A DNA stretch of 32,000 nt, taken from the NCBI GenBank assembly GCA_049974095.1, contig JBMFJD010000004.1:35080-67079 (forward strand), given 5' to 3'. Each line of letters opens with the position of its first letter. Position 1 is the first letter of the stretch. This DNA is from Nanopusillaceae archaeon (lineage in GTDB: Archaea; Nanobdellota; Nanobdellia; Nanobdellales; Nanobdellaceae). This document shows positions 16,962 through 28,297 of this stretch, piece after piece. The notes beneath the pieces are model-generated. The model saw nothing but the letters and a program-made list of their open reading frames with translations. It was not told where the DNA came from and did not search any database. The translations under genes and the position numbers were made by a program.

Positions 16962-17390
16962 TTAGTGGGCGGCTTCCGTGCTTTCCCGGCCTTCGCCAGT
17001 ACTCACACAGACGTGGGCCGGCTTAACTTCCGTGTTCGAAATGGGTACGGGTGTTTCCCGGCCACTTTGGCCGCCCTTGATTTTATCATTTCCATGAACC
17101 TTTTTTAAATCTTTTCTTATATTGAATCTCTTAACATATCCACAATATAAACATTTATATATAATTCTTCCTCTTCTTATCCTTATTTGTAATGTTTTAC
17201 CGACAATCCATGGAGTATAACATCTTTTACAAAATTTATTTCTTAAATTTTTTGGCAATCTAATTCTAGCTTTATTTTTTATTTTCCATAAAATATAAAT
17301 ATATCTTCTAGATAATTCTAAATTATCAATATTTTCTATTGCTTTCTTATATAAATATTCTATTCTCTTTATTGCTGTTTTTTTATACAT
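16962..17390 (-). CDS. rnp4: RNase P protein component 4 (Rpp21/Rpr2). The ORF has no stop before the 5S gene and runs through it
   Basis: AIKRIEYLYKKAIEN...LSRRYIYILWKIKNKARIRLPKNLRNKFCKRCYTPWIVGKTLQIRI...YKCLYCGYVKRF is the Rpp21 helical arm plus zinc ribbon. The conserved domain ends near nt 17120. Residues ~105-142 (KGGQSGRETPVPISNTEVKPAHVCVSTGEGRESTEAAH) are a translation of the 5S rRNA gene. Confidence 0.75.
   Translation of the reverse strand: MYKKTAIKRIEYLYKKAIENIDNLELSRRYIYILWKIKNKARIRLPKNLRNKFCKRCYTPWIVGKTLQIRIRRGRIIYKCLYCGYVKRFNIRKDLKKVHGNDKIKGGQSGRETPVPISNTEVKPAHVCVSTGEGRESTEAAH
16965..17076 (-). rRNA. 5S ribosomal RNA (isolated, not linked to 16S/23S in this window)
   Basis: The reverse complement reads GGGCGGCCAAAGUGGCCGGGAAACACCCGUACCCAUUUCGAACACGGAAGUUAAGCCGGCCCACGUCUGUGUGAGUACUGGCGAAGGCCGGGAAAGCACGGAAGCCGCCCAC. 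It contains the conserved ACACCCGxACCCAUUUCGAACxCGGAAGUUAAGCC core. Helix I pairs GGGCGGC with GCCGCCC. Ends are accurate to within a few nt. Confidence 0.93.
17102..17109 (-). promoter_or_regulatory. 5S rRNA promoter: TATA box TTTAAAAA preceded by the purine-rich BRE-like AAGAAAAGA, embedded in the rnp4 coding sequence
   Basis: The minus strand reads AAGAAAAGATTTAAAAAAGG. The TATA centre lies about 29 nt upstream of the 5S 5' end at 17076. Confidence 0.45.
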
Positions 17391-23738: not shown

Positions 23739-23810
23739 CCATAATAATTATTTATCAATAATTTAAAACTTAATATTATGTTTTAACTTTGAAAAACAAA
23801 AATATTATAT

Positions 23811-23894
23811 GCCGCGGTGCCCGAGTGGACCAAGGGGTCTGGCTCGAGACCAGATCCCCGAAAGGGGACGTGGGTTCAAATCCCACCCGCGGCG
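23811..23894 (+). tRNA. tRNA-Ser (anticodon CGA)
   Basis: 84 nt. Acceptor GCCGCGG/CCGCGGC, anticodon stem TCTGG/CCAGA with loop CUCGAGA, long variable arm (CCCCGAAAGGGG), T arm GTGGG-TTCAAAT-CCCAC, discriminator G. It is a GC-rich island. Confidence 0.92.
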
Positions 23895-24434
23895 TTAAAT
23901 AATGCTTTTTTGTATTTCTTCTTCAATATTTTTTAAATTCTCTCCTAATTCATATATTGAATCTCTTCCTTTTACAGTTATTAAATTTCTATCAACAAAA
24001 TAATTATGATTTGTTATTAATTTTACTCCAGAATTTTCGAAATATTTTAGATATTCTGGAAATTCGTCATAATTATATACAATTGATCTTCCAACCAAAA
24101 GACCAGATTTTAAAAATGCAATTTGTGCTAATGAAGATAATATTACTGTTCTATATGAATTTAAAAATCTTGTAAATATAGATTGTATTTCTACATCCAT
24201 AAATTCTTTGTATCCTCTATCTGCAATAAAAATTATTCTATCAAAATGATTTTCTTTCATTAAAAATATTTCATGTGTATCAAAATCTGGTAATACTTTG
24301 CTTTTATATCTTCCAATACTAATTTCTCTTTTTGGAATTGCAACATAATTTCTTCCATCTAATATATCAAAAAAATTAAATAAATCATCATCATCAAATC
24401 CTCTTCTTGGTAATACTATTAAATTCATTTTCAT
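23895..24434 (-). CDS. DJ-1/PfpI-superfamily-like protein lacking the nucleophile Cys (tentative)
   Basis: NLIVLPRRGFDDDDL...FDRIIFIADRGYKEF...TVILSSLAQIAFLKSGLLVGR...FVDRNLITVKG follows the class I glutamine amidotransferase-like/DJ-1 strand order. SSLAQ replaces the usual (A)ICHGP elbow. The ORF opens with a TTG at 24455, and the first ATG is at 24434. Confidence 0.45.
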   Translation of the reverse strand: MKMNLIVLPRRGFDDDDLFNFFDILDGRNYVAIPKREISIGRYKSKVLPDFDTHEIFLMKENHFDRIIFIADRGYKEFMDVEIQSIFTRFLNSYRTVILSSLAQIAFLKSGLLVGRSIVYNYDEFPEYLKYFENSGVKLITNHNYFVDRNLITVKGRDSIYELGENLKNIEEEIQKSII

Positions 24435-24497
24435 AAAATATAATAAATACTTCAATATTATTAAAATTTTTAATTTCCAAAATATCTTATCAAAGAT

Positions 24498-26174
24498 ATG
24501 TCAGATATTAAATTAGAAGATTTAAGAAATGAAAAAATTGAGGATAATAAACATAAATTATTGGAAATAAAACTAATATTTGATAATCCAAATATAAGAT
24601 TTGAACAGATATATTTCTGGTTATTAGATTTTATAAGGGATAGCTTAAAAATGAATATAAGTAAATTATCCGATGAATTTACATCTTCTGTAGGTTCTTT
24701 ATTTTTTGGAGAAATGAGTCAAAGAGCAACTGCAGTATTAAATACTGCCAGATCATTGGGAGAATTATTTAATACATTGACAAGATCAATTATATCAATT
24801 TTAAGTGAATATAAACAGATACAAACAAGGATTTTTCTATATGAAAAAATATTATCAAATGATAAAGATGAAGCATATAGTGCATATTTAACATTAAAAG
24901 ATATATGGATAAATAATGTAGATACAAATAGAGGTGCTGCAAGCTTAGCAAATATATCTAGGGGAAGATTAGGATTTGCAACTGCAATAGATTTATTTTA
25001 TATTTCTGATCTAAAAAATGAACTTGAAAAATTAAAAAATAAAGGAATTATTGGAGAATCTCTATTTAATAAAATATTTAACGAACAATATAATATACCA
25101 AGAGATTTAAATGAAATAAAAAATAAAGGAATAATAAATGAACAAATATATAATGTTGTAAATATTAGATTACAAGAATTTTATAACTGGTTAGAAATAA
25201 ATAAGAAATATCTATATGATAGAAATAATTTATTAAAAGCATATTTAAGGCATCAATTGAGCTCTTTATTATATTATGTTGAATTTGCAAAACCATATTT
25301 CAAATTTGCAAGAAAATTATTACAAAATCCTGAACAACCTATAGATGTTGTAAATGCATTAGAAACTGCAATTATTAACTTAACATTATTTTCTACTGGA
25401 AAAGAAACTAATGTAAAAGAGTATAATGAAAAAGAAGAAAAAGAAGGAGAAAAAACATATTTACCATTATATGAAATTGATATAACTGCAAGAGCATTAC
25501 CAACATTAACTGGAAGAGTTGAAGGTACAAGAATGTATTCATTCATTGGAAGAGCTGATATATATTTAAGAGCATATATTGTAGAAAAAAGTGAATATGA
25601 AAATATATTAGTAAATCAGGAAGCAGAGGATTTGTTATATATTACAGGATTAACTGATGAATATTTAAAAGATATGTCTGATATAATTTTGGAGATGTTT
25701 TTATATGATATAATAAAAAATGACGAAAAATTATTAAAATTAGTTGCAAATAGGTCAAATGCAAAACCTGATGAAATAAAAAACAATCCTTATAAAATAA
25801 AATGGACTAAAGAATTAATTGAAGAATTGGAAAAGAATGAAAGAATAAAAAAAGCAATGGGAAGTATAAGATGGATAAAAAAATATTTAGAATCTGAAAA
25901 AAAGGAAGAAAAAAATGAGGAGAAAAAAGAAGAAAAAGAAGGAGAATCCGGAATTCAATTAATATTTCCAAGTTTATCCAATATATTTATGAAAATATTT
26001 GAATTCATTACAACTTTTGGTAAAGACTTAAATGAAATTGGAAAGAATATAAAAAAGAAAAATATAGAAAATGAAAAGAAATATATTATGGATGATTTAA
26101 AGGATAAAACAATAGATACTGCCTGGAAAATTTATATGACATTTAAGAAAACATTTGGTATGTTAAATTATTAA
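24498..26174 (+). CDS. Hypothetical protein (558 aa): helical, two SHOCT-like repeats, K/E-rich linker, amphipathic C-terminus
   Basis: Long ORF with normal cytoplasmic composition and a TATA-like TTTTTAAT about 27 nt upstream. I recognise no family for the N-terminal IRFEQIYFWLLDFIRD...RGAASLANISRGRLGFATAIDLFYI region. Confidence 0.55.
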   Translation: MSDIKLEDLRNEKIEDNKHKLLEIKLIFDNPNIRFEQIYFWLLDFIRDSLKMNISKLSDEFTSSVGSLFFGEMSQRATAVLNTARSLGELFNTLTRSIISILSEYKQIQTRIFLYEKILSNDKDEAYSAYLTLKDIWINNVDTNRGAASLANISRGRLGFATAIDLFYISDLKNELEKLKNKGIIGESLFNKIFNEQYNIPRDLNEIKNKGIINEQIYNVVNIRLQEFYNWLEINKKYLYDRNNLLKAYLRHQLSSLLYYVEFAKPYFKFARKLLQNPEQPIDVVNALETAIINLTLFSTGKETNVKEYNEKEEKEGEKTYLPLYEIDITARALPTLTGRVEGTRMYSFIGRADIYLRAYIVEKSEYENILVNQEAEDLLYITGLTDEYLKDMSDIILEMFLYDIIKNDEKLLKLVANRSNAKPDEIKNNPYKIKWTKELIEELEKNERIKKAMGSIRWIKKYLESEKKEEKNEEKKEEKEGESGIQLIFPSLSNIFMKIFEFITTFGKDLNEIGKNIKKKNIENEKKYIMDDLKDKTIDTAWKIYMTFKKTFGMLNY

Positions 26175-26197
26175 ATTACGAAATTTCATAAATAATT

Positions 26198-28297
26198 ATG
26201 GATAATGATAAAAAGAAATATCCAAATGAATTATTTAACAGACCTATAGGAAGTAGTACAAATCCTGCTATAGCAAATCAGTTACAAGCATTTTTTGAAA
26301 AAGTTAGAGCAGGATATCCTGCTGTAGAAATTCAAACATTTTCATTTTATTCAAGAGAAGGACAAGCAGGATGGGCAGATATACCAAAAATTATTTTTGA
26401 AGAAATTGCAAGATCTGCAAAAATAAATAATGTCCAGTTATCTATACATGCTCCAGAACAGGATTTTCAAATAGCAGGTACTCCAGATAGAGAACTAAAT
26501 ATAAGTAAAGATTATAAAAAAGATAGTGCATATAAGATATCTTCAGTATTAGAAGCTGCAGAAACTATGTCAAAAATATATGGCCAACCAATAAAGGTAA
26601 ATATGCATGCTGGGGATACTACTTTAACAATTTGGGATAAAGATTTTGAAGAAAAAGTAAAAGAAAAATTGATATATGATTATAATTATAGAAAAGAATT
26701 TATAGAAAAATTATATAGAATGGGATTTATTACTGAAGAGCAATATAATATTTTAACTAAAAATAATATTGATAGAGAAACATTAGAAAAAAATATTCCA
26801 TCCTGGGCTTTTGCAAAATCTGAAGGAATATATTATAGAATAAATGGTGATGATATATTTAGTAAATTTGCTTCTCCATTTACAAGAGGAGTCGAAAGAG
26901 CAATTGGAGAAGTTGAAAGAGGAGGAAAAATAAGAAAAGAAGAAATAAAAACAATTGTAGATGAATTATATAATGCAAATGAAAATTTCTGGCTAAATTT
27001 CTTTAGTAGTATAGATAATCAATTTAGTAATTTAGCAATTAAATTTAGAAGAGATATTGAAGGCTTCTTCAATTATTTATTAACCCGAGGGGGATTTGCT
27101 GCTGGATATCCACAAAAAATTGGTGATTTTATAATGTATATTAAATCTTATAGAAATGTTTTGGATAATGTAAAAAATTTTGTAAATACTATAGAAGATA
27201 ACATAAGAAATATTAATGATGAAGAATTAAAAAGAGAAGTCGCAAATAAAATAGAATATTGGAAATCTATATTAAATGAAAATATAAATAAAATAGAAGA
27301 TTATGAAAAAAAATTATCAGAATTAGCTAGATATGCTGAAGAAGAAAAACAATATGATAAAATAGAAAATTATTTATTAAATGAAACAATAAATATTACT
27401 AATAATTTGAAAAATTCATTTGAAATAGTTGGATATTTATTAGATAATTTAAAAAATACAGTATTTTCTGATAGATTTGTACCTGTTGCATATCCTTTCC
27501 AAGAATTAGCAATAGAAAATGGAGCAAAAAATATTGCTGAAGGAATTAAAATGTTAATTGAAAGAGAAAAAATTAAGAATCCAAATTGGTATAAAAATAT
27601 TGTAGAATATTTACCAGATATTGTAATTGAAGAATCCTATCCAGGTGCTCCAGCAACAAGACCAGATATATGGAAAGAATTATTAAATAAAATAAGAGAG
27701 GAATTAAAGAATATTATTGAAAACTATCCTGAATTAAAGAATGAAATAGAAAAAAAGTATGGAAATATAGATAATTATTTAAAAAATAAAATAGGTGCAA
27801 CATTAGATGTTGGACATATAAAGATGTTTGAAAAATATGGATATAAGAAAGAGGATATATTAAAATGGGTTGAAGAAATAAAACCAGAAATAAAACATTT
27901 ACATGTTCATGAAACCCAATGGGGATCAGATACTCATTCACCTTTAGGTTTGGGATGGGATGATGTTATTGCAGAAGAATTAGAAAAAATAAAAGATATA
28001 TTGGGAAATGTTTCTATTGTTCATGAACCTGGATCATGGTATACAAAAGGATTTTCTCAAATGTATGGTTCAGAATATTCATATTATTTGCAAGGAGTTA
28101 ATCCAACAAATGTATATGGTCCATTATATGGAAATGAAGCATTTATAATTTCTCCATATGGAGGTACTCAATTTATTCCTCAATACATACAATATACCCA
28201 ATATTCTCCATTTTCTTATAATATATTTACCCAATTACCATTAGATCTTGGAGGAGGTAAGAAACAACAAACATTTACAGGAGAAAGAATAGATTAA
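26198..28297 (+). CDS. Endonuclease IV-like / xylose-isomerase-like TIM-barrel metalloprotein split by a ~330-aa helical insertion, with a Y/Q/G/P-rich tail
   Basis: Motifs in Endo IV order: QLSIHAPE (H84), KVNMHAGD (H137), IVIEESYPG (E478/479), ATLDVGH (D537, H540), KHLHVHE (H567/569/571), GSDTHSPLGLG (D578, H580), SIVHEPG (E610). These correspond to the nine metal ligands of E. coli Nfo. Residues ~141-470 have no counterpart in Nfo. Confidence 0.55.
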   Translation: MDNDKKKYPNELFNRPIGSSTNPAIANQLQAFFEKVRAGYPAVEIQTFSFYSREGQAGWADIPKIIFEEIARSAKINNVQLSIHAPEQDFQIAGTPDRELNISKDYKKDSAYKISSVLEAAETMSKIYGQPIKVNMHAGDTTLTIWDKDFEEKVKEKLIYDYNYRKEFIEKLYRMGFITEEQYNILTKNNIDRETLEKNIPSWAFAKSEGIYYRINGDDIFSKFASPFTRGVERAIGEVERGGKIRKEEIKTIVDELYNANENFWLNFFSSIDNQFSNLAIKFRRDIEGFFNYLLTRGGFAAGYPQKIGDFIMYIKSYRNVLDNVKNFVNTIEDNIRNINDEELKREVANKIEYWKSILNENINKIEDYEKKLSELARYAEEEKQYDKIENYLLNETINITNNLKNSFEIVGYLLDNLKNTVFSDRFVPVAYPFQELAIENGAKNIAEGIKMLIEREKIKNPNWYKNIVEYLPDIVIEESYPGAPATRPDIWKELLNKIREELKNIIENYPELKNEIEKKYGNIDNYLKNKIGATLDVGHIKMFEKYGYKKEDILKWVEEIKPEIKHLHVHETQWGSDTHSPLGLGWDDVIAEELEKIKDILGNVSIVHEPGSWYTKGFSQMYGSEYSYYLQGVNPTNVYGPLYGNEAFIISPYGGTQFIPQYIQYTQYSPFSYNIFTQLPLDLGGGKKQQTFTGERID

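Follow-up and report, generated by a model that had tools for sequence, protein, structure and literature searches.

A TIM barrel of the AP_endonuc_2 superfamily, split by an inserted domain and linked to a partner of unknown fold in Nanoarchaeota

The 32,000-nucleotide (nt) stretch of Nanopusillaceae archaeon DNA analysed here (the window; contig JBMFJD010000004.1, positions 35,080 to 67,079) carries two adjacent plus-strand open reading frames (ORFs), of which the first, P1 (558 residues, 24498-26174), is followed after a 23-nt spacer (26175-26197) by the second, P2 (699 residues, 26198-28297). P2 belongs to a known kind of enzyme in a split form and is paired with a family of unknown fold, P1; no description of the pair was found in the literature searched. 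Judging from its alignments, P2 is most likely an active metal-dependent phosphoesterase that retains all nine ligand residues by which endonuclease IV (Endo IV) holds three metals, and conserved gene order suggests that P1 and P2 most likely form a vertically inherited, co-transcribed pair characteristic of the Nanoarchaeota in the GTDB sense. The explanation that we tentatively favour, while placing it somewhat below an even chance, is a conserved operon in which an inserted domain of P2 together with P1 would control the substrate of a three-metal phosphoesterase, probably nucleic-acid ends or apurinic/apyrimidinic (AP) sites.

P2 is a xylose-isomerase-like (AP_endonuc_2) triosephosphate isomerase (TIM) barrel. 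In the AlphaFold2 (AF2) model, which was built on a 21-sequence alignment and reached a predicted local distance difference test score (pLDDT) of 74.7 and a predicted template modelling score (pTM) of 0.76, eight barrel strands lie at residues 18-21, 42-46, 80-84, 133-137, 474-478, 532-537, 565-571 and 606-610, giving the (beta/alpha)8 barrel of the PF01261 AP_endonuc_2 superfamily. Full-length P2 scored 29.9 bits against PF01261, through its C-terminal half only, and fell just below the cut-off of 31.1 because the insertion splits the match; P2 minus the insertion scored 32.8 bits, above the cut-off. AP_endonuc_2 likewise matched 25 of the 26 diverse P2 members, with the insertion removed, that make up alignment A5 (best E=5.3e-20). 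In a Foldseek search of the P2 model against the PDB, the best matches (probabilities of 0.92-0.99) were also AP_endonuc_2 barrels, namely UVDE and epimerases acting on psicose and tagatose; their weakness (E ~0.05) again arises because the insertion splits the local alignments. Exhaustive HMMER searching of representatives put the family at 737 clusters (50% identity) with E<=0.001, of which 166 reach E<=1e-30, while a word-indexed homologue search with a mixed alignment added just one further distant member. The lengths of the 150 best representatives listed are 560-735 residues in nearly all cases, indicating that the split architecture is a family-wide property. Members carry the database labels 'hypothetical', 'TIM barrel protein', 'AP endonuclease' and 'sugar phosphate isomerase/epimerase'.

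The two barrel halves are encoded at 26198-26638 (+; residues 1-147, beta1-beta4, with E44, H84 and H137), as delimited by the AF2 model, conservation and the alignment with MJ1311 described below, and at 27488-28033 (+; residues 431-612, alpha4 and beta5-beta8, with E478, D537, H540, H569, D578, H580 and E610), as delimited by the AF2 model, Pfam and alignments. A sequence-only reading of this DNA had given the two ORFs, their 23-nt spacing and seven motifs within P2, and all of these were recovered where it had placed them: IHAP at residues 83-86, MHAGD at 136-140, IEES at 477-480, LDVGH at 536-540, HLHVHE at 567-572, DTHSPLGLG at 578-586 and VHEP at 608-611. Conservation of the putative metal ligands was counted in a MAFFT alignment of 151 diverse P2 family members. 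Seven positions, H84, H137, E478, D537, H540, H569 and E610, are conserved in 151/151 sequences, and D578 and H580 are kept in 142 and 144 of the 151, respectively; E44, outside the nine ligands, is kept in 149. Within the histidine run 567-571 it is H569 that is invariant, H571 being mostly Thr or Ser. Conservation of the ligand positions is far beyond chance.

The trinuclear site of Escherichia coli Endo IV (Nfo) is formed by H69, H109, E145, D179, H182, H216, D229, H231 and E261. Using hhalign and hmmalign, six of these ligands, D179, H182, H216, D229, H231 and E261, were aligned exactly with D537, H540, H569, D578, H580 and E610 of P2, whereas H84, H137 and E478, which MAFFT puts within 4-6 residues of the Nfo ligand positions, were equated with the remaining three by strand position and through the HAP, HPG and LEN motifs of MJ1311. 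The nine-ligand set of Nfo is thus present in P2 as far as sequence alignment and strand order can tell, in agreement with the nine positions that had been aligned by eye, and its conservation extends family-wide. Endo IV (E. coli Nfo and the Pyrococcus furiosus enzyme PF0258/PfuAPE) is a TIM barrel of the same Pfam superfamily, with its nine ligand positions on strands beta3-beta8 in the same order as in P2, and its chemistry, the three-metal hydrolysis of phosphodiesters and phosphomonoesters, would be expected for P2 by analogy. P2 is more than twice the size of Endo IV and differs from it in having an inserted domain and a partner.

Relationship at the level of the family points elsewhere. 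Full-length P2 and alignment A1 gave spurious coiled-coil matches alone when searched against PDB sequences, and it was removal of the insertion before the PDB profile search that revealed MJ1311 of Methanocaldococcus jannaschii (293 residues; 3WQO), the only significant PDB profile match of the de-inserted family (E=4.2e-19). The match covers residues 72-161 and 179-260 of MJ1311, two stretches flanking the insertion site, and the motifs HAP, HPG, LEN, DxGH, HVH, DDEHL..G.G and E occur in MJ1311 as in P2, such that profile similarity extends over both barrel halves and is accompanied by the ligand motifs. P2 departs from the contiguous ~290-residue architecture of MJ1311, a single-domain barrel, by the addition of a ~283-residue domain, an 87-residue tail and an upstream partner gene. 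By profile similarity, P2 is placed on the MJ1311 branch, itself uncharacterised, as a form that carries an extra domain. The MJ1311 structure paper reportedly found the nine Endo IV zinc ligands conserved. Kiyonari et al. named MJ1311 as the Endo IV homologue predicted for M. jannaschii and, in P. furiosus, showed that the homologue PF0258 has genuine AP endonuclease and 3'-phosphatase activity, whereas a second Endo IV-like protein of that species, PF1383, is inactive (PMC2770678). Comparison of the P2 profile with E. coli Nfo in hhalign gave a probability of 0.56%, which is not significant, and by sequence profile P2 falls outside the Nfo family. The Endo IV-like barrel proposed earlier therefore stands as regards the AP_endonuc_2 superfamily and the ligand set and gives way as regards the family, the nearest relative being MJ1311 (E=4e-19); on these alignments, the resemblance to Endo IV holds for the active site and not for family membership.

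The same comparisons bear on whether P2 could instead be a sugar or keto-acid isomerase or epimerase serving a residual carbohydrate metabolism, its additional His and Asp residues being structural. D-tagatose and D-psicose 3-epimerases share the fold of P2, head the Foldseek matches and show weak partial sequence similarity, following MJ1311 in the PDB profile search with E of about 0.03-0.3 over ~45 C-terminal residues. Among the NCBIfam models, fructoselysine 3-epimerase matched 22 of the 26 diverse members and hydroxypyruvate isomerase 11, some members carry the Joint Genome Institute (JGI) label 'sugar phosphate isomerase/epimerase', and MJ1311 itself is said to have been described as 'D-tagatose 3-epimerase-like'. 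However, these matches are weak (E 0.03-0.05 in the PDB; 1e-8 at best in NCBIfam, below the cut-off) and confined to the C-terminal ~50-100 residues, and P2 shows no significant profile match to the D-tagatose/D-psicose 3-epimerases, the NCBIfam PsicseEpim model matching only 3 of the 26 members at E>=0.015. One-metal sugar epimerases bind their single metal through four ligands, Glu, Asp, His and Glu, and are not known to have the five extra ligands of the P2 family. We take the corresponding positions in P2 to be E478, D537, H569 and E610, which would leave H84, H137, H540, D578 and H580 outside the epimerase set; conservation across the 151 members of these five further positions argues against an isomerase, as do the minimal metabolism of the organisms that carry the family and the lack of linked sugar-metabolism genes. 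We consider an isomerase or epimerase quite unlikely.

The inserted domain of P2 (residues ~148-430, in the beta4-alpha4 loop; 26639-27487, +), delimited by the AF2 model and the family alignment, comprises ~283 residues once the barrel's own alpha4 helix is subtracted. AF2 places helices in 148-205 and 253-422 and a beta-hairpin at 208-225, and the model resolves five helices, each 16-42 residues long, besides the hairpin, which makes the domain a bundle of helices and not a single extended coiled coil. An insertion of ~330 residues with coiled-coil-like character had been proposed earlier: its presence and helical nature are borne out, whereas its length is nearer 283 residues and the model favours a bundle. 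The site of insertion is identical in all family members examined, with lengths of 156-292 residues in the 151-sequence alignment, and the inserted sequences diverge between subfamilies (mean column identity 21%). As the sequence-only reading had supposed, no known domain was found in the insertion in Pfam and PDB searches, which returned merely designed helical bundles (E ~0.01). Placement between beta4 and alpha4 would, from TIM-barrel topology, put the insertion on the catalytic face of the barrel. A formal likeness to Rad50, SMC and MukB proteins may be drawn, in that a catalytic fold is interrupted by a helical insertion and partner genes lie adjacent, and the order found in Woesearchaeota and Pacearchaeota, P1 (~510 residues), a charged protein of ~200 residues and the split enzyme, recalls MukF-MukE-MukB. 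Unlike those proteins, P2 is a TIM barrel and not an ABC ATPase, its insertion is modelled with no long antiparallel coiled coil, and P1 shows no homology to any known family.

The C-terminal tail of P2 (residues 613-699; 28034-28294, +), recognised by its composition and low pLDDT, consists of 87 residues rich in Tyr (14%), Gly (13%) and Gln (10%) and ends ...QLPLDLGG...TFTGERID. It is predicted to be disordered (pLDDT <50), yet its sequence is strongly conserved, and within Nanopusillaceae many of its positions do not vary. Related aromatic-rich tails recur throughout the family, P661 and P681 being kept in them, and come in two flavours, …GSGFSxLPxELGGQ… and …NYIVGAYxPSNEWxLWSxVPLE; the tail may serve in docking or self-association. 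Many woesearchaeal and pacearchaeal members also show a Tyr-rich N-terminal motif, [FY]xxGYxxxMDRxY. Such tails, with their self-association-prone appearance, and the long helices of both proteins would suit a chiefly structural or scaffold role for P1 and P2, for example in a cytoskeletal or cell-contact apparatus, with enzymology secondary; in the same vein, the unsplit 293-residue Endonuclease IV of Nanoarchaeum equitans, NEQ368, is among its ~10 most abundant proteins (PMC3149612). Against a scaffold stand the strict invariance of catalytic-type residues across the 151 members, the absence of a transmembrane segment or signal sequence from both P1 and P2, and the pace at which both evolve, somewhat faster than their housekeeping neighbours (identity to Nanobdella of 66% for P1 and 54% for P2, compared with 74% for SecY and 81% for tryptophanyl-tRNA synthetase, TrpRS). 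A primarily structural role is accordingly judged very unlikely.

P1 had been regarded as an orphan. A scan with one genome per GTDB species overturned this view, locating P1 relatives at 484 places in the species-representative genomes of Nanopusillaceae, Nanoclepta, Woesearchaeota and Pacearchaeota, with identities that fall from 65-82% in Nanopusillaceae through ~42% in Nanoclepta and NZ13-N to 27-32% in Woesearchaeota and Pacearchaeota. That P1 has no recognisable domain was upheld, with no match in Pfam, NCBIfam, PADLOC or PDB sequences. P1 is soluble, and its AF2 model (pLDDT 73.9, pTM 0.48) is mostly helical, with long helices around a central beta-sheet at ~291-363, for which Foldseek returned nothing significant against the PDB and BFVD; matches to START, TULIP and Cyt-toxin folds and to levivirus maturation proteins (probability <=0.38, TM-score <=0.26) were dismissed as noise. 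No kinship between P1 and P2 was detected with hhalign. Some P1/P2 homologues (P0270, L066, P0112) also appeared on short contigs binned as 'Aquificaceae bacterium' (1 kb), 'Omnitrophota bacterium' (3 kb) and 'Aenigmatarchaeota', which are most likely mis-binned Nanoarchaeota contigs and not real occurrences outside the phylum. N. equitans is not among the best 80 of the 484 P1 loci, and canonical Endo IV and the P1/P2 pair may have complementary distributions.

Linkage of the two genes was counted in these best 80 P1 loci. At 57 of them P2 follows P1 on the same strand, and at 13 of the remaining 23 the sequence beyond P1 is shorter than 2.5 kb, which leaves 57 of 67 informative loci and bears out the expectation that the pair would be linked in other, distant genomes. 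The linkage persists at 27-44% P1 identity. In Nanopusillaceae and Nanoclepta there is either an overlap of 1-55 nt between them or a gap of 28-35 nt (23 nt here), while in Woesearchaeota and Pacearchaeota the gap is mostly 0.5-1.5 kb and up to 4.4 kb, and often holds a highly charged, poorly conserved ORF of ~200 residues. In addition, a nucleotidyltransferase of the Pol-beta superfamily (~290 residues) is encoded 3' of P2 at 36 loci (39 by hidden Markov model search), a divergent ~118-residue protein with a C-terminal coiled coil upstream at 44, and a glutamyl-/glutaminyl-tRNA synthetase (GluRS/GlnRS), likewise upstream and divergent, at 42. The nucleotidyltransferase, the ~118-residue protein and the charged ORF were not found near the pair in the window or in Nanopusillaceae, apart from one marginal match in Nanobdella, and GluRS/GlnRS was not found near it in the window or at other Nanopusillaceae loci. 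Other neighbours of the pair are tRNA synthetases, SecY and a beta-CASP RNase, and no transporter, lipid, cofactor or sugar-metabolism genes were linked to it. The larger module was seen at the loci L003, L004 and L006 and ~40 other woesearchaeal and pacearchaeal loci (e.g. L004:3813-8871). At L003, genes for PDDEXK_3 and 23S_rRNA_IVP (four-helix-bundle) proteins lie between module members (L003:7551-7952 and L003:10908-11267), an interruption that may reflect the entry of small selfish elements into an otherwise conserved operon.

Co-transcription had been suggested earlier from a promoter-like element found only before the first gene. TATA-like runs were indeed read from the sequence ~25-35 nt 5' of the P1 ATG, in the A/T-rich intergenic segment (24456-24497, +) that separates P1 from a divergent DJ-1/PfpI-like gene; they also occur within the 3' end of P1 and before SecY, and such runs are not diagnostic of a promoter before P1 alone because in DNA of ~23% GC they are everywhere. 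Conserved adjacency and overlap of P1 and P2 support co-transcription better than the promoter does. The gene order here, TruD, TrpRS, tRNA-Ser, DJ-1/PfpI-like, P1, P2, SecY, membrane protein and L34e, is the same in Nanopusillus, Nanobdella, YN1 and Nanobsidianus by synteny comparison, and the GC content of the pair equals that of its surroundings. Proteins identical to those of the window occur in a Nanopusillaceae metagenome-assembled genome (P0064 and P0001). These observations also bear on a defence or mobile-element module, a nuclease with a sensor or partner directed against foreign nucleic acid, which had been raised as one possible role. A nuclease-like enzyme with an unknown partner looks superficially like two-gene defence systems, and the PDDEXK_3 and 23S_rRNA_IVP genes are interspersed at one locus. 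PADLOC, however, gave nothing better than E=0.02, and those matches fell within the helical insertion; PHROGs matches were of unknown function or spurious in helical sequence; no P1 relative was found in 2.9 million viral contigs; the fixed housekeeping position and phylum-wide spread differ from the patchy occurrence of defence islands; and composition is uniform. A defence, phage or mobile-element origin was rejected on these grounds and is regarded as exceedingly improbable. A role in repair specific to high temperature, also proposed earlier, was rejected in view of the provenance of the family, most members coming from woesearchaeal and pacearchaeal metagenome-assembled genomes, several of them labelled groundwater.

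Taken together, a working mechanism for the tentatively favoured operon may be formulated. Three divalent metals, bound at the C-terminal ends of beta3-beta8 as the ligand set and the analogy with Endo IV imply, would activate a water molecule for cleavage of a phosphodiester or phosphomonoester. Given the topology of TIM barrels, the inserted domain on the catalytic face might act as a lid, a substrate-recognition module or an oligomerisation module. P1, possibly with the P2 tail, may bind P2 and direct or regulate it, as the gene linkage suggests, and elsewhere in Nanoarchaeota the charged ~200-residue protein and the nucleotidyltransferase, by the same token of linkage, may serve in similar roles. 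The substrate, which is the weakest step, would be lesions or ends of nucleic acid, i.e. AP sites, 3'-phosphates or other 3' blocks in DNA or RNA; a nucleic-acid substrate is favoured because of the Endo IV ligand set, the connection through MJ1311 to PF0258 and the linked nucleotidyltransferase.

Several observations weigh against this proposal. The PDB profile search returned no canonical Endo IV structure at E<=1, and the NCBIfam nfo/deoxyribonuclease IV models matched a single one of the 26 members (E=0.003-0.04, below the cut-off), the best NCBIfam matches, all of them below cut-off, being sugar epimerases and isomerases together with CbiR. Nfo inserts the residues Tyr72 and Leu73 into DNA; in a loose N-terminal alignment, the first His is followed in P2 by APEQD (H84-APEQD) compared with DSYL in Nfo (H69-DSYL), and on this alignment P2 would lack the Tyr-Leu pair. 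The depositors of MJ1311 are said to have seen no DNA-binding groove, and P2 is acidic, with an isoelectric point (pI) of 5.3. Furthermore, loop 572-590, which holds D578 and H580, has low confidence in the AF2 model (pLDDT <50), ten P1 loci whose downstream sequence extends to 3 kb or more have no P2 nearby, and the physical complex of P1 and P2 is a putative one, proposed from gene linkage.

Some of these points would equally suit a phosphodiesterase whose substrate is a small molecule or a lipid, for instance in the remodelling of scavenged host cofactors, nucleotide-linked compounds or lipid head groups, with the inserted domain and P1 binding a substrate or carrier other than nucleic acid. 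CbiR, a member of the same superfamily, cleaves the phosphodiester of a cobamide, and thereby offers a precedent for an AP_endonuc_2 enzyme that hydrolyses phosphodiesters other than those of DNA. Its NCBIfam model ranks with the better matches of the P2 family (7 of 26 members, best E=5e-7), also with full-length P2. The similarity is weak, with scores far below the cut-off (18 compared with 105 bits), and CbiR has neither insertion nor partner and belongs to bacterial cobamide metabolism. The apparent lack of the DNA-contact motif after the first His and the acidity of P2 fit a small-molecule substrate, as does the linked nucleotidyltransferase, which consists of NTP_transf_2 and a C-terminal region of ~180 residues and by eye resembles kanamycin nucleotidyltransferase, a kind of enzyme that acts on small molecules or proteins. 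Nanoarchaeota, moreover, have no lipid, nucleotide or cofactor biosynthesis and must process host-derived compounds (PMC5339279). On the other hand, the nine-ligand set is that of Endo IV, the pair is not accompanied by genes for transporters, lipids or cofactors, and the START/TULIP-like Foldseek matches of P1 (E ~0.4-1, TM-score <0.2) provide no confident lipid-binding fold. A small-molecule or lipid substrate is considered unlikely.

The favoured explanation, a three-metal phosphoesterase operating on nucleic-acid ends or AP sites, may be extended to a machine of several subunits that processes nucleic acids and is confined to Nanoarchaeota, comprising P1 and P2, and outside Nanopusillaceae also the charged protein and the nucleotidyltransferase, in which an Endo IV-type three-metal barrel would be gated by a helical arm and a partner of new fold. 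Such a machine might perform some essential task peculiar to these host-dependent archaea, whether healing the ends of acquired DNA or RNA, salvaging it, or standing in for the canonical AP endonuclease. This extended version is rather unlikely in our estimation.

Genomes of Nanoarchaeota and other DPANN archaea are tiny, and retention of a ~3.8-kb pair with a strictly conserved active site across the phylum suggests that it likely matters biologically. If P2 is the AP endonuclease or end-processing enzyme of this lineage, a minimal genome would have rebuilt a core repair function around an insertion and a partner, and if it acts on other phosphodiesters, it would bear on how symbionts process host-derived molecules. 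Either way, the pair offers a handle on the MJ1311 branch of Endo IV-like barrels and on the large P1 family. These questions are testable, given that Nanopusillus acidilobi and Nanobdella aerobiophila carry the family and grow in co-culture.

Two further features of the window were recorded. Upstream of the pair, a tRNA-Ser(CGA) gene (23810-23895, +) abuts the stop codon of a 186-residue minus-strand gene (23895-24455), which keeps its place immediately before P1 in Nanopusillaceae, Nanoclepta and NZ13-N; the NZ13-N orthologue has a precomputed DJ-1/PfpI match, and the window copy has no Pfam match. Elsewhere, a 5S rRNA gene (16964-17078, -; Rfam, 75.9 bits) lies inside the listed 142-residue ORF 16962-17390 (-), at least the 3' part of which is probably non-coding.

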